NCBI RefSeq assembly: GCF_965641715.1
Contig: NZ_OZ282453.1
Source: Escherichia coli
GTDB taxonomy: Bacteria; Pseudomonadota; Gammaproteobacteria; Enterobacterales; Enterobacteriaceae
DNA length: 64,000 bases
Direction: 5' to 3' (one strand)
The position numbers are program-made. Positions 12,001 to 18,000 of the stretch are shown in pieces. The first letter of the stretch is position 1; every line of letters begins with the position of its first letter.

Positions 12001-15000
12001 TGATGGCCCGCAATTGGCAAAAACCACGGGCGGTAACGGTTGGATAAAAATGTTAAGGCAGCGCGAGTTGAAGCTGTACCAATGGATGGCGTCTTATTTA
12101 CCCGTATTGTTGATTCGTCTTGGCATTGATGAACAAACCGCGTTTGCGCGTAAACCTGACCACCAACTGGCAGCGTTACAGGAAAAAATCGCCGTTACGC
12201 CGCAATTGACATTCAATGGCGCAAAGATCCTTGAACTGGATGGTCGGCAACCAGCCGATGAAATTCTGCAAGCGTCACTACGCGCAATTCACGCCGCGCT
12301 TTCCTGATCACCAAAATGGATAGGGGATGATTTAACGAATGGATGCACTACAAACACAAACTGTTATTAGTACAACCGCGCCGCAGCCCAACTACATACC
12401 GGGGCTGATTGCGGTGGTCGGGTGTGATGGCACCGGTAAATCCACACTGACCACCGACCTGGTGAAATCGCTGCAACAACACTGGCAAACCGAGCGCCGC
12501 TATTTGGGGCTGCTCTCGGGCGAAGACGGCGACAAAATAAAACGATTGCCGTTGGTTGGCGTCTGGCTGGAACGGCGACTGGCGGCCAAATCCTCGAAAA
12601 CCCAAAGCATGAAAACCAAATCTCCAGCGCTATGGGCGGCGGTGATTATGTACTGCTTCTCGCTGCGAAGAATGGCGAATCTGCGCAAGGTTCAGCGACT
12701 GGCGCAAAGTGGCGTTCTGGTGGTCAGCGATCGCTTCCCGCAGGCTGAAATTTCGGGCTTTTATTATGACGGACCGGGGATCGGCGTCGAACGTGCGACC
12801 GGGAAAATAAGCATGTTTCTGGCGCAGCGCGAACGGCGTTTATACCAACAAATGGCGCAATATCGCCCGGAATTAATTATTCGCCTGGGCATTGATATTG
12901 AGACTGCCATCTCCCGCAAGCCTGACCATGACTATGCCGAGCTGCAGGACAAAATCAGTGTTATGTCGACGATTGGCTATAACGGCACAAAAATTCTTGA
13001 GATTGATTCCAGAGCGCCCTACAGCGAAGTGCTGGAACAGGCACAGAAGGCGGTTTCTCTGGTTGCCATCGTTTCTGACCGCCGAAGTTTAACTTAAGGC
13101 TGGCGGGATACTTTTTACTATCAACGATAAGGTCAGGCTGAATTGGCGGGTTTTAACATCAAACATTGGTTTGCAGATGGCGCGTTTCGCACCATTATTC
13201 GCAATAGCGCCTGGTTAGGCTCCAGTAATGTCGTGAGCGCCTTGCTGGGTCTGTTGGCGCTCTCGTGTGCCGGTAAAGGGATGACGCCCGCCATGTTTGG
13301 CGTACTGGTGATTGTGCAATCGTACGCCAAGTCGATCAGCGATTTTATTAAGTTTCAGACATGGCAGCTGGTGGTTCAGTACGGAACACCAGCATTAACC
13401 AACAATAATCCGCAGCAATTTCGCAATGTCGTCTCATTTTCCTTCTCGCTGGATATCGTCAGCGGCGCGGTGGCGATTGTCGGCGGCATTGCCTTACTGC
13501 CATTCCTTTCCCATTCATTAGGTCTGGATGACCAAAGCTTTTGGCTGGCGGCGCTGTATTGCACGCTCATTCCTTCAATGGCTTCCTCCACGCCGACCGG
13601 CATTCTGCGTGCGGTAGATCGCTTTGATTTGATTGCTGTACAGCAGGCGACGAAACCTTTTCTGCGCGCAGCGGGGAGCGTCGCAGCCTGGTATTTTGAC
13701 TTTGGTTTTGCGGGTTTTGTTATTGCCTGGTACGTGTCGAATCTGGTTGGCGGCACCATGTACTGGTGGTTTGCCGCGCGCGAATTACGCCGCAGAAATA
13801 TCCATAACGCCTTCAAATTGAATCTGTTTGAGTCTGCCCGACACATTAAAGGCGCGTGGAGTTTTGTCTGGTCAACCAACATTGCCCACTCCATCTGGTC
13901 GGCGCGTAACTCGTGCAGCACAGTGTTGGTGGGGATCGTGTTAGGACCCGCTGCCGCCGGGTTATTTAAAATCGCCATGACATTCTTCGACGCCGCCGGA
14001 ACGCCAGCGGGTTTGCTGGGTAAAAGTTTTTACCCAGAGGTGATGCGTTTAGATCCGCGCACCACCAGACCGTGGTTGTTAGGTGTGAAGTCCGGTTTAC
14101 TGGCGGGCGGAATCGGTATTCTGGTGGCGCTCGCGGTGTTGATCGTCGGCAAGCCGCTCATTTCGCTGGTGTTTGGCGTTAAGTATCTCGAAGCGTATGA
14201 CCTGATTCAGGTGATGCTGGGCGCAATTGTGATTTCGATGCTGGGTTTCCCGCAGGAGTCATTGCTATTGATGGCGGGAAAACAGCGCGCTTTTCTCGTG
14301 GCGCAAACCATCGCCTCAATCGGCTACATCGTATTGCTGTTCATGTTCTGTCATCTGTTTGGCGTGCTGGGAGCAGCGTTTGCTTACTTCGGTGGGCAAT
14401 GTCTGGATGTGGTGCTTTCGCTAATTCCGACCTTAAAGGCATTTTTTCAGCGCCATTCCTTGCTTTATAACGCAGCCGGAGAGAAATCCTGATGATGAGA
14501 AAATATTTCCCGCTTGAGGCGAGCGAGCATCTATTTGTTGCGATTGAGGAAGATGATGTTGTTGATGCCCAGGTCAGTTTGCCGCCGACTATCGCACTAA
14601 GTTGTACCACCGAAATCATCCATGATAATTACGCGTTATGCCTGCAATTCTGGCTCAATGGCGTTGATCGTCAGGAATTACTTCGTTTAATTCGCAAACA
14701 AGCCAAAGGCGATGAGCTGACGACAGACGAGCGTAAACAGTTTAAATACATGCGAGCGCGCTACAAGCATCTACGTTTTGCACAACGGCTGTATTTAAAA
14801 AAGCATCAGGCCAGATTTTTATTCGGCAAAACGACCGTTTTTCTGGGACGTTTTCAGGACGGATTTCGTAACGGTAAGAAAAATATTGTGTCGTATTACG
14901 GCAACCTGTTACGAATTTATTTAAGCTCTCCGGTCTGGTCGTTGGTGAACTATTCATTACGCCATAGCCAGTTAGAAAGCGTAAGCGGTTTTATTGCCTA

Positions 15001-18000
15001 TCGGCAAAAGCAAATGCATGCCCTGAAAGAGATAATTGCCAAACCGCGACTAACCGGCAGGGAATTTCATGATGTGCGAAAAATCATCAGCCAGCAGGTT
15101 TCTTATTACGACACCTTAAGATCGCTTGATCCTGAAAATAAAGAGGCGTTACAGATTTCCCGTTTCCTGGCCGCCATTAATGGCCTGATGGGGGATAAAC
15201 ACGACGACATGGTGGCGGATGATATGGAAAACCGCCAGTCGTATGATGCACCGGTGGCGCTGGATAGCGATATTCGTCAGCGCTTAGAGCTGCTGATTTC
15301 GCGTTTTCCGCTATAACCGGAGCAATGATGTCATCTCGTTTGATTATTGCGCTGATTATCATGCTCTTAGCCCCGGGTGTGCAGGCACACAATTTCGTCA
15401 CTGGCAAAACGGTTACCCCTGTTTATATTCAGGAAGGCGGCGAGCTGCTTCTGAATAGCGACGACGAAATTCACTACCAAAAGTGGAACAGCACACAATT
15501 GGCGGGAAAAGTCCGAATTATCCAGTATATCGCCGGGCGTAAGTCGGCGAAGAAAAAGAACTCACTGTTAATTAAAGCGGTTGAAGCGGCAAACTTTCCG
15601 CAGGATCGTTTTCAGCCCACCACCATTGTGAACACCGATGATGCCATCTTTGGTACTGGCTATTTTGTTGTTGGCAAAATCGAAAAAAATAAACGCCGCT
15701 ATCCGTGGGCGCAATTCGTTATTGATGGCAATGGGCTGGGACGCGTTGCCTGGCGCTTGCCGGAGCAGAGTTCAACCATTCTGGTGCTGAATAAAGCTGG
15801 GCAAATTCAGTGGGCAAAGGACGGCAGCCTGACGCCGGAAGAGGTAGATCATGTCATTGCGCTGGCGCAGAAACTGATCAATGAATAAAAAACTCAAAGG
15901 ATTGAGGGCGTTAGTGAGATGAAGCTGGTTGAACACTACATCATGCGTGGTACGCGCCGTCTGGTGCTGATTATCGTCGGTTTTCTGATCTTTATTTTCG
16001 CCAGCTACTCCGCACAGCGTTATCTGACCGAAGCGGCAAATGGGACATTAGCTCTTGATGTTGTGCTGGATATCGTTTTCTACAAAGTGCTGATTGCACT
16101 GGAGATGTTGTTACCTGTTGGTCTGTATGTGTCAGTTGGCGTGACGCTAGGGCAGATGTATACCGACTCGGAAATTACCGCTATCTCTGCGGCGGGGGGC
16201 AGTCCGGGACGCTTGTACAAAGCCGTTCTTTATCTGGCGATACCGCTAAGTATTTTTGTCACCCTTCTGTCGATGTATGGTCGTCCGTGGGCTTATGCGC
16301 AGATTTATCAACTGGAGCAGCAGTCGCAGTCGGAGCTGGATGTTCGCCAGTTGCGGGCAAAGAAATTTAACACTAACGATAACGGACGAATGATCCTTTC
16401 GCAGACGGTTGATCAGGATAATAATCGCCTGACTGACGCGCTGATTTATACTTCTACTGCCAATCGAACCCGCATTTTCCGCGCCCGTTCGGTTGATGTG
16501 GTTGACCCATCACCCGAGAAACCGACCGTTATGTTGCACAACGGCACTGCCTATCTTCTCGATCATCAGGGGCGTGACGACAACGAACAGATCTACCGTA
16601 ATCTGCAATTACATCTGAATCCGCTGGATCAAAGCCCTAACGTCAAACGCAAAGCGAAATCGGTCACGGAGCTGGCGCGCTCCGTCTTTCCAGCCGATCA
16701 TGCCGAACTGCAATGGCGACAAAGTCGTGGCCTGACAGCATTGTTGATGGCGCTGCTGGCCATTTCATTAAGTCGGGTAAAACCGCGGCAAGGGCGATTT
16801 TCAACATTATTGCCACTGACGTTGCTGTTTATTGCCATTTTTTATGGCGGCGACGTCTGCCGTACGCTGGTGGCTAACGGCGCAATTCCCCTCATTCCTG
16901 GTTTGTGGTTAGTACCCGGACTCATGCTAATGGGCCTGCTGATGCTGGTCGCACGCGACTTCTCTTTGCTGCAGAAATTTTCCCGATGAATGTTTTCAGT
17001 CGCTATTTAATCCGTCATCTCTTTCTCGGTTTTGCCGCCGCCGCAGGGCTATTGCTGCCGCTTTTTACCACCTTCAACCTGATTAACGAACTGGATGATG
17101 TCAGCCCGGGCGGTTATCGCTGGACTCAGGCGGTGCTGGTGGTGCTGATGACCTTACCGCGTACACTGGTCGAACTTTCGCCGTTTATCGCATTATTGGG
17201 AGGGATTGTTGGCCTGGGGCAGTTATCGAAAAACAGTGAGCTTACCGCCATTCGCAGCACTGGGTTTTCTATCTTCCGTATTGCACTGGTGGCGCTGGTT
17301 GCCGGGATATTGTGGACTGTTTCGTTAGGCGCGATAGATGAGTGGGTAGCGTCGCCATTGCAGCAACAGGCGCTGCAAATCAAATCGACCGCCACTGCGT
17401 TGGGGGAGGACGATGATATTACCGGCAATATGCTTTGGGCCAGGCGCGGTAATGAATTTGTAACGGTGAAATCGCTGAACGAGCAGGGCCAGCCGGTGGG
17501 CGTGGAGATATTTCATTATCGCGACGATCTCTCGCTCGAATCCTACATTTATGCACGCAGTGCCACCATTGAAGACGACAAAACGTGGGTCCTGCATGGT
17601 GTGAATCATAAAAAATGGCTGAATGGCAAAGAAACGCTGGAAACATTAGATAATCTTGCCTGGCAATCGGCCTTCACCAGTATGGATCTTGAAGAGCTAT
17701 CGATGCCGGGGAATACTTTTTCTGTCCGTCAGCTTAATCATTACATCCATTATTTGCAGGAAACCGGGCAACCCAGCAGCGAATACCGCCTTGCACTGTG
17801 GGAAAAACTGGGGCAACCCATCCTGACCCTGGCGATGATTTTGCTGGCTGTGCCGTTTACCTTTAGTGCCCCGCGCTCGCCAGGGATGGGTAGCCGTCTC
17901 GCTGTAGGCGTCATCGTTGGCTTACTCACCTGGATCAGCTATCAAATCATGGTCAATCTGGGATTGCTATTTGCGTTAAGCGCACCTGTTACCGCGCTCG

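Follow-up and report, generated by a model that had tools for sequence, protein, structure and literature searches.

The window analysed here, 64,000 nucleotides of an Escherichia coli chromosome (RefSeq assembly GCF_965641715.1, contig NZ_OZ282453.1), contains an unnamed gene between the flippase gene yghQ and a ytfJ-like gene. Its 274-residue product very probably has the fold of the CHAD superfamily and is homologous to it, as a new branch distantly related to the polyphosphate-binding CHAD domains. The gene lies in the sphingolipid locus and, together with genes for thymidylate-kinase (TMPK)-like proteins (YghR/S/T) and a flippase of the MOP/Wzx type (YghQ), it forms a conserved unit, further called the trio. 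We tentatively propose that the protein is a cytoplasmic adaptor that binds phosphate or another polyanion and acts between the kinases and the flippase, in the service of a phosphorylated envelope lipid.

A new branch of the CHAD superfamily

The protein is all-alpha and its predicted AlphaFold2 (AF2) model is confident. In an architecture test, this model consists of two four-helix bundles related by a pseudo-two-fold axis, each with a [K/H]-x2-R-(x3-K/R) helix and a G-x2-[Q/H]-D helix; the assignment of the nearest fold refers to a comparison against PDB libraries. A pseudo-two-fold repeat is what defines CHAD structures (PMC6537752). When the N-terminal half of the family profile is aligned with its C-terminal half (hhalign, E 0.0033), K85 pairs with H193, R88 with R196, G119 with G234, Q122 with H237 and D123 with D238.

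The known CHAD domains (PF05235), for example RcCHAD (6QV5), CtCHAD (3E0S/6QV7), Streptomyces PptA (6RN5) and the C-terminal domain of YgiF (5A60/5A61), likewise have two four-helix bundles with pseudo-two-fold symmetry and, in each half, a His/Lys-x2-Arg-x3-Lys/Arg helix followed by a Gly-x3-Asp helix. They are also basic overall, and the length of the protein matches that of the 'long' type of about 300 residues. In contrast to these domains, it has an additional conserved acidic motif at the N-terminus, a lysine instead of histidine at position 0 of repeat 1 and a repeat 2 ladder in which part of the positions are Ser, Gln and Val. Furthermore, it is encoded beside a MOP flippase and TMPK-like kinases in lipid loci, instead of CYTH, PPK or PPX.

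At the sequence level, Pfam CHAD is the only Pfam family that recurs among the 89 full-length relatives, 27 of which match it at E<=0.01 (best 1.7e-8). The gathering score of the model (25.6 bits) is surpassed by three distant members, P0203 (35.1), P0206 (26.5) and P0220 (26.0). Their alignment to the model is mostly collinear, residues 160-265 corresponding for example to model positions 111-226, and the occasional cross-matches are such as an internal duplication would give. With a profile made from distant members alone, residues 10-272 of the E. coli protein are matched at E 1.7e-58; therefore, the distant members and the E. coli protein constitute one family. The CHAD domain 6qv5 is the best match of the family profile among PDB sequences (E 0.0012), and the two motif pairs agree in register: hiRarfKqLRfa...mG is aligned with MRVGVRRLRSA...LG in repeat 1, and FHelRKiisr...NglMGdlHDeLv with AHRTRIATKR...QEELGRHNDLVV in repeat 2. 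A profile of 29 close homologues found nothing in the same set of sequences.

Since the Pfam CHAD profile fails for the protein while it is passed by relatives, we place it in the superfamily and not in the family itself. This failure, in combination with the absence of the usual context of polyphosphate enzymes, is also the reason to regard it as a new branch. The remote-homology and fold searches proposed in a sequence-only reading of the window thus ended at the CHAD superfamily, close to the outcome which that reading had named as counting against it, that is, a characterised family with no relation to lipids; the homology is remote, however, Pfam CHAD does not recognise the protein and the neighbourhood is lipid-related.

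Two other assignments were rejected. One cluster of the family (P0105) carries the SEED-style name 'Conserved hypothetical TPR repeat protein, clustered with yghQ', which would fit an all-alpha protein, but neither a TPR profile nor a solenoid is present and the fold comparison refutes it, so that a TPR protein is highly improbable. An HD-domain phosphohydrolase, considered on account of the invariant H...HD, found no support in the Pfam scan or the fold comparison.

Conserved residues and breadth of the family

CHAD domains are specific binders of inorganic polyphosphate, with nM-uM affinity, and the polymer lies across conserved basic patches. The contacts made by the H-x2-R-x3-R residues have been validated by mutation, for H253/R256/R260 in CtCHAD and H29/R32/R36 in SsCHAD (PMC6537752). 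Residue conservation was measured here in a full-length alignment of 89 family sequences, down to about 20% identity. R88, D123, H193 and R196 are invariant, and K92, R95, H105, G119, K197, N230, M233, G234, H237, D238 and P31 are at least 90% conserved. Basicity is a property of the family as a whole: 13 positions are K, R or H in at least 70% of the sequences, and the median pI is 9.27.

On the alignments, the basic helix of repeat 1 can be read as the counterpart of the CHAD helix H-x2-R-x3-R-x2-R that contacts polyphosphate. Its ladder is complete, with lysine in the place of histidine (K85, R88, K92, R95). In repeat 2, H193, R196 and K197 are kept, and the +7 and +10 positions are S200 and V203; the position of Q201 is basic in 81% of the family. 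As the ladder is partly kept, a surface that binds phosphate or a polyanion is plausible for this protein, but in a modified form. The acidic motif is specific to the family, and the helices that hold it (residues 8-22 and 40-57) lie before the segments of family sequences that match CHAD.

The same conserved residues could be seen as a catalytic site, with H105, D123, H193, R196 and H237-D238 serving, for instance, a phosphotransferase or pyrophosphatase that builds or trims a head group. The invariance of H, D and R residues down to 20% identity fits an enzyme, as does a locus that has kinases and no obvious head-group transferase of the CpgA/CpgC type; moreover, the original CHAD proposal, as quoted in PMC6537752, had histidine as a phospho-acceptor. 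We nevertheless consider an enzyme unlikely. The suggestion of the sequence-only reading, a novel enzyme or regulator, is accordingly rated below a ligand-binding adaptor.

The description of the protein as an orphan was wrong. A word-indexed search gave 343 clusters of homologues, in Escherichia, Pseudocitrobacter, Hafnia, Serratia, Sodalis, Pantoea and others, and an exhaustive hidden Markov model search with a 29-sequence profile gave 306 representatives (at 50% identity) at E<=1e-3, 177 of them at E<=1e-10. The most distant members (P0193, P0201, P0205, P0210, P0220, P0226, P0255, P0258, P0263, P0264 and others) have N-termini that resemble signal peptides, so that their export is probable. 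The same members reach the Pfam CHAD threshold singly. Export is unexpected for a family of polyphosphate-granule proteins.

Some relatives have several domains: P0223 and P0235 (about 980 residues; L086 8001-10931), P0122 (564 residues), P0181, P0214 and P0242. In one type, an N-terminus resembling a signal peptide is followed by an APH/choline-kinase-like phosphotransferase, a domain like that of the E. coli protein and a Pfam CHAD domain; in another, the domain like that of the E. coli protein is doubled in tandem. The kinase fusions echo the linkage to kinases in the operons. The genomic context of one fusion protein and of one secreted member, on a contig of a metagenome-assembled genome (MAG) and on a 1.4-kb contig, was uninformative.

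A real gene, coupled to the flippase gene

The stop codon of yghQ (TGA, 14490-14492) and the ATG at 14492 have one base in common, as had been noticed from the sequence, and the junction reads TCCTGATGATGAG; in CCGGAGAGAAATCCTGATGATG this one-base overlap is seen with the Shine-Dalgarno sequence GGAGAG upstream. Co-expression with yghQ is therefore likely, given the overlap, the good Shine-Dalgarno sequence, a junction that recurs in other genera and the lack of an internal terminator above chance level.

The product is basic and rich in Arg and Lys (R24, K17, H8; pI 9.27, net charge +7), as the sequence-only reading had it, with a basic cluster at residues 76-130 that holds 16 K/R against 3 D/E. 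Hydropathy and sequence revealed neither a transmembrane segment nor an N-terminus like a signal peptide. The 19-residue Kyte-Doolittle window reaches a maximum of just 0.82, hence the absence of a transmembrane segment, and the earlier view of a soluble protein holds. The gene has a GC content of 45.6%, with local 1-kb windows at 40-57%, and this comparison gave no clear sign of foreign origin.

In comparison with divergent Escherichia lineages (dS 0.64-0.75), the ratio of nonsynonymous to synonymous substitution rates (dN/dS) is 0.074-0.085, and the gene is thus under strong purifying selection, with dN/dS about 0.08. This ratio, the RefSeq annotation as a coding sequence and the occurrence in 4165 of 5426 complete E. 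coli genomes show that the gene is real and more than a chance open reading frame. A spurious or decaying, untranslated frame could be imagined from the lack of direct expression evidence, the absence of the gene from K-12 and the truncated variants in databases; in view of the purifying selection, the full-length conservation to about 20% identity across Proteobacteria, the coupled start with its Shine-Dalgarno sequence and the confident AF2 fold, its probability is next to nil.

The truncated versions from E. coli and Shigella, of 77-211 residues and with identical N-termini, form separate clusters (P0140, P0145, P0165, P0171, P0213, P0229 and others); they are either pseudogenes of some lineages or fragments from short contigs. 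A chimera of residues 1-222 of the protein and a GspM-like tail stands in the databases under the name 'type II secretion system protein GspM' (P0033; E. coli, 280 residues). It implies that in some strain a deletion joins the gene to gspM, and it is a source of misannotation.

A conserved trio

The neighbourhood was surveyed in 82 loci, 79 from species-representative genomes and three from earlier look-ups, which were searched with the proteins of the window; the counts are lower bounds, since some contigs end close to the CHAD-like gene. YghR/S/T-type TMPK-like proteins are present in 73 loci. The YghQ-type flippase is present in 72 and is the most constant neighbour, in nearly all cases on the same strand and with its centre about 1.1 kb upstream. 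The other neighbours are the ytfJ-like gene (47 loci), spt-acpR-cerR (47, within 10 kb), lptF2/G2 (43-45), yghO (41) and pitB (9). The conserved unit is thus the trio of TMPK-like kinases, MOP/Wzx-type flippase and CHAD-like protein.

The trio occurs in Enterobacterales, Rhodanobacteraceae, Sphingomonadales, Acetobacteraceae, Carnimonas and beta- and gammaproteobacterial MAGs, lineages that are known or predicted producers of sphingolipids. The order of the genes is kinases..aasR-cerR-acpR-spt-flippase-CHAD-like gene in Rhodanobacteraceae, kinase-kinase-flippase-CHAD-like gene in Sphingomonadales, and kinase-CHAD-like gene with the flippase adjacent in Acetobacteraceae. In loci of Enterobacterales and Rhodanobacteraceae, spt genes lie within 10 kb; in Sphingomonadales and Acetobacteraceae they are scattered and only the trio is local. 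The linkage of the trio therefore persists without spt within 10 kb as well as with other modules rearranged, as in Serratia and Sodalis, where the block of flippase, CHAD-like gene and ytfJ-like gene is intact and the remaining modules have moved. The ytfJ-like gene was found in no locus of Rhodanobacteraceae, Sphingomonadales or Acetobacteraceae. In other genera, the distance between the flippase stop and the following start is -4, -1 or 0 nt in 40 of 60 same-strand pairs.

YghR/S/T are TMPK-like both by profile and by structure. They contain the motifs GxDGxGKST, DRYPQ and ARKPDH, and a hydrophobic/basic insertion that is not present in aligned TMPK sequences and that would be suited to a membrane substrate. 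The RefSeq name 'dTMP kinase' for YghT and YghS is probably wrong. An identity as PPK2 was considered and rejected, as the closest relatives in sequence and structure are TMPK-like and not PPK2. Classical CHAD operons with PPK2 likewise have a CHAD-type protein beside P-loop kinases of the TMPK structural class.

These data bear on the possibility that the protein is an ordinary 'phosin' of polyphosphate granules, binding inorganic polyphosphate, with a position in a lipid locus that is incidental or loosely regulatory, for example if phosphate status gates expression. The CHAD fold and the retained basic residues, with the nM-uM affinity of CHAD domains for polyphosphate, agree with this, and the phosphate transporter gene pitB adjoins the locus in Escherichia and close relatives. 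Over four orders, however, pitB is adjacent in a small minority of the loci in comparison to the flippase and the kinases, the coupled flippase junction is conserved, and no polyphosphate-metabolising partner, fused or in an operon (CYTH/TTM, PPK1/2, PPX), is present among the examined neighbourhoods. In addition, the protein is too divergent for Pfam CHAD and has partly lost its repeat 2 ladder, and E. coli already has a canonical CHAD domain in YgiF. The phosin explanation is consequently given a low probability.

In a gammaproteobacterial MAG (CG22; L079 5501-10214), two paralogues of the CHAD-like gene are interleaved with three TMPK-like kinase genes, with no flippase gene between them; this is the tightest pairing of kinase and CHAD-like genes that was found. 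Further genes accompany the trio in distant lineages (Acetobacteraceae, Carnimonas and a betaproteobacterial MAG); they encode GT4 and GT2 glycosyltransferases, an ArnT-like PMT_2 protein or a histidine phosphatase, which hints at further glycosylation or dephosphorylation of the lipid product. Stand-alone copies, with no trio or spt genes within 10 kb, are found in Pluralibacter gergoviae (L021 9890-10804), in L028 and as a second copy in Sphingomonas formosensis (L066 9992-10816); their neighbours encode a BCCT transporter, an M20 peptidase, an LpxO-like Asp/Arg hydroxylase and CtaA.

A possible role in lipid phosphorylation and flipping

In the mechanism that we propose, the YghR/S/T kinases would phosphorylate or pyrophosphorylate the head group of a lipid, possibly the sphingolipid of the locus. 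The CHAD-like protein would bind a phosphate-rich ligand by its conserved basic surface at the inner face of the membrane, as CHAD domains do with polyphosphate; this ligand could be the (pyro)phosphorylated head group that comes from the kinases or a polyphosphate donor. By contacts with YghQ or the kinases, it would tie the phosphorylation of the head group to the flipping step of YghQ. The flipped lipid may then be extracted and exported by LptF2/G2, the genes of which follow just downstream.

It could also be imagined that the lipid made and flipped by the trio bears an oligo- or pyrophosphate head group (for example ceramide-PP or ceramide-PPP, made from ceramide-P), the chain of which is read or carried by the CHAD-like protein. 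The acceptor of thymidylate-kinase-type enzymes is a phosphate, and such enzymes could therefore lengthen a lipid phosphate chain. The MOP flippase family recognises undecaprenyl-PP substrates, and YghQ would in this case recognise a cargo of the lipid-diphosphate type. This more specific proposal is a long shot.

Alternatively, the protein could be a chaperone, assembly factor or regulator of YghQ and/or YghR/S/T that acts independently of phosphate, through its helical bundles and the acidic N-terminal motif. Translational coupling to the flippase suggests stoichiometric co-production, the acidic motif is conserved and specific to the family, and helical bundles are frequent as scaffolds. 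Such a role would leave unexplained why the CHAD-type ladder of basic and His residues is the most conserved part, and stand-alone members and members with a signal peptide exist without a flippase; we regard it as rather improbable.

A number of observations weigh against a phosphate-binding CHAD-type adaptor. The E. coli protein itself has no match in Pfam or NCBIfam, and none to Pfam CHAD even at E<=1; to this extent the earlier statement that it contains no recognisable motif stands, while the CHAD fold and the repeat signature, which are present, contradict it. The E-values with CHAD sequences of the PDB are marginal (about 1e-3), and fish interferons (7wkh, 3piv) score like CHAD against the family profiles (E 4e-4 to 4e-3, over about 80 residues). 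The interferon match is almost certainly a spurious one between four-helix bundles, and it calls for caution with marginal E-values in helical proteins; the sequence evidence therefore counts only together with the structural evidence. No relation emerged when the family profile was compared by hhalign with the E. coli YgiF sequence alone. This result is not counted against homology, because YgiF has a short, divergent CHAD domain and a single sequence is a weak template. In Enterobacterales, the repeat 2 ladder retains only H193, R196 and K197, and three or four loci hold the gene without the trio. The literature yielded no expression, binding or lipid data on the gene. Finally, among the 17 Caulobacter genes discussed below, none is CHAD-like or TMPK-like by published description, the comparison being one of descriptions and not a sequence search.

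The Caulobacter crescentus locus CC_1152-CC_1168 has in common with that of E. coli the genes spt, acpR, cerR, aasR, cerS (yghO) and lptF2/lptG2 and a flippase of the Polysacc_synt type (CC_1166). Caulobacter has the ceramide phosphoglycerate pathway CpgABC and LptF2/G2/C2, and ceramide modification there involves a ceramide kinase resembling diacylglycerol kinase, a Tam41-like protein, a CDP-alcohol transferase and nucleotidyltransferases. As no counterpart of the CHAD-like protein or of the TMPK-like kinases is described in Caulobacter, the trio is probably not shared by all bacteria that make sphingolipids. E. coli has TMPK-like kinases and a CHAD-like protein where Caulobacter has CpgABC and nucleotidyltransferases, and the trio thus looks like an alternative head-group module.

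The sphingolipid locus in E. coli

The window carries an intact yghT–yghO sphingolipid locus (Table 1), in which pitB and yghT (minus strand) are followed by yghS, yghR, yghQ, the CHAD-like gene, the ytfJ-like gene, lptF2 and lptG2 (plus strand), then by spt, acpR, cerR and aasR (minus strand), yghO and glcC. The membrane-lipid setting that had been read from the sequence is therefore that of the published E. coli locus (spt, acpR, cerR, aasR, yghO/cerS, lptF2/G2), and the place of the gene between a flippase and a YtfJ-like gene is confirmed by Pfam, NCBIfam and RefSeq. Biochemical tests have been made on AcpR, AasR and Spt of E. coli B, and yghO/ECD_02850 is listed as the counterpart of CC_1154, that is, as ceramide synthase (PMC9386255). 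In Caulobacter, sphingolipid export needs the LptF2/G2 paralogues, and the UTI89 locus has been drawn beside the Caulobacter locus (bioRxiv 10.64898/2026.04.12.717747, Figure 2B).

Table 1. Features of the locus in the window, and of the additional genes that join the trio in other loci.
Feature	Position	Strand	Evidence or remark
yghT, third yghR/S/T paralogue, divergent	10728..11420	-	
Sigma-70-like promoter match upstream of yghS	11516..11544	+	Consensus match only; such matches occur at chance number in the region
yghS, yghR paralogue	11594..12307	+	
yghR, thymidylate-kinase-like P-loop kinase with inserted hydrophobic/basic segment	12339..13097	+	
yghQ, MOP/Wzx-type flippase (Polysacc_synt)	13143..14492	+	Pfam 3.8e-11; NCBIfam MOP flippase
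Shine-Dalgarno GGAGAG, within 3' end of yghQ	14478..14483	+	8-10 nt before ATG of CHAD-like gene; read from sequence
Coding sequence of CHAD-like 274-residue protein	14492..15316	+	ATG start; RefSeq WP_021574773.1 'hypothetical protein'
N-terminal acidic motif, residues 8-31, LFxAxEEDDxVDxxxSLP, family-specific	14513..14584	+	Alignments; D22 89%, P31 93%
Repeat 1 basic helix, residues 78-101, K85-x2-R88-x-R90-x-K92-x2-R95	14723..14794	+	R88 invariant, K85/K92/R95 96-97% basic (n=89)
Repeat 1 G-x2-Q-D helix, residues 106-126 (H105, G119, Q122, D123)	14807..14869	+	D123 invariant, G119 99%, H105 97%
Repeat 2 His/Arg helix, residues 189-212, F192-H193-x2-R196-K197	15056..15127	+	H193, R196 invariant; K197 96%
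Repeat 2 G-x2-H-D helix, residues 217-245, N230-G-x-M-G234-x2-H237-D238	15140..15226	+	Near-invariant
YtfJ_HI0045-family periplasmic protein, signal peptide	15325..15888	+	Pfam 2.2e-59; 8 nt past CHAD-like gene
lptF2, LptF paralogue of sphingolipid locus	15919..16989	+	Pfam LptF_LptG 7.9e-54
lptG2, LptG paralogue of sphingolipid locus	16986..18065	+	Pfam 9.5e-70; RefSeq coordinates
Strong hairpin, probable bidirectional terminator, 16 bp (10 GC), between convergent lptG2 and spt	18063..18097	.	Terminator scan
spt-acpR-cerR-aasR, ceramide-precursor operon	18100..22151	-	RefSeq annotation
yghO, bacterial ceramide synthase (N-acyltransferase) homologue	22548..23690	+	RefSeq; PMC9386255 lists yghO
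Additional genes joining the trio in other loci	L078 10810-11997; L075 6433-7512, 10863-12377; L056 8814-9569; L080 7868-8563		

From yghS to lptG2, the gaps are at most 45 nt and there are two overlaps, which suggests a seven-gene operon. The terminator scan gave nothing above chance inside this stretch. The hairpin at its end is the sole terminator-like site of the region that is clearly above chance-level matches, and apart from it the promoter and terminator scans of the region remained at chance level.

In K-12 MG1655 (NC_000913.3, L085 6147-8409; about 14200-22500 of the window), an IS5 element (IS5LO/insH9) lies between a 3'-truncated yghQ (355 residues) and yghO. The CHAD-like gene, the ytfJ-like gene, lptF2/G2, spt, acpR, cerR and aasR are absent; K-12 has lost the part of the locus from the CHAD-like gene to aasR through an IS5 deletion. 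The standard laboratory strain is therefore unusable for the study of this gene. Among the complete E. coli genomes, spt is present in 4134 and yghR in 4624, and the CHAD-like gene and spt are inherited together (4165 and 4134 of 5426). Alleles of 90-95% identity occur in 578 genomes for the CHAD-like gene and in 391 for yghR, in contrast to spt, which falls below 95% in one genome only (12339-15316 versus 18100-19272 of the window). Two classes of alleles may therefore exist, or recombination may have taken place, on the kinase-flippase-CHAD side of the locus only.

Significance

The synthesis of sphingolipids in bacteria has been elucidated only in recent years. The published work on it covers the five ceramide genes and LptF2/G2, and not the decoration or inner-membrane flipping of ceramide in loci of the E. 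coli type. We found no functional study on yghQ, yghR/S/T, the ytfJ-like gene or the CHAD-like gene in the literature. The fold family itself is known; to judge from the searchable literature, neither this CHAD branch nor its linkage to a MOP flippase and TMPK-like kinases, nor its position within sphingolipid loci, has been described before. The locus may have been overlooked so far because K-12 lacks it.

An unnamed gene hereby obtains a fold and a testable role, and a family that is now annotated as 'hypothetical protein' obtains an annotation. Its linkage suggests an unrecognised phosphate-handling step in the making or export of sphingolipids. If the protein reads a phosphorylated head group, the biology of CHAD would reach from polyphosphate granules to membrane lipids, and this would point to an undescribed anionic lipid in roughly three of every four E. 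coli strains, with BL21 and uropathogenic ones among them. An oligophosphate head group, if it exists, would represent a new class of bacterial envelope lipid, and the protein would be the first lipid-directed CHAD. As a lead, the CHAD-like gene makes the head-group and flipping step directly testable for sphingolipid loci of the E. coli type.

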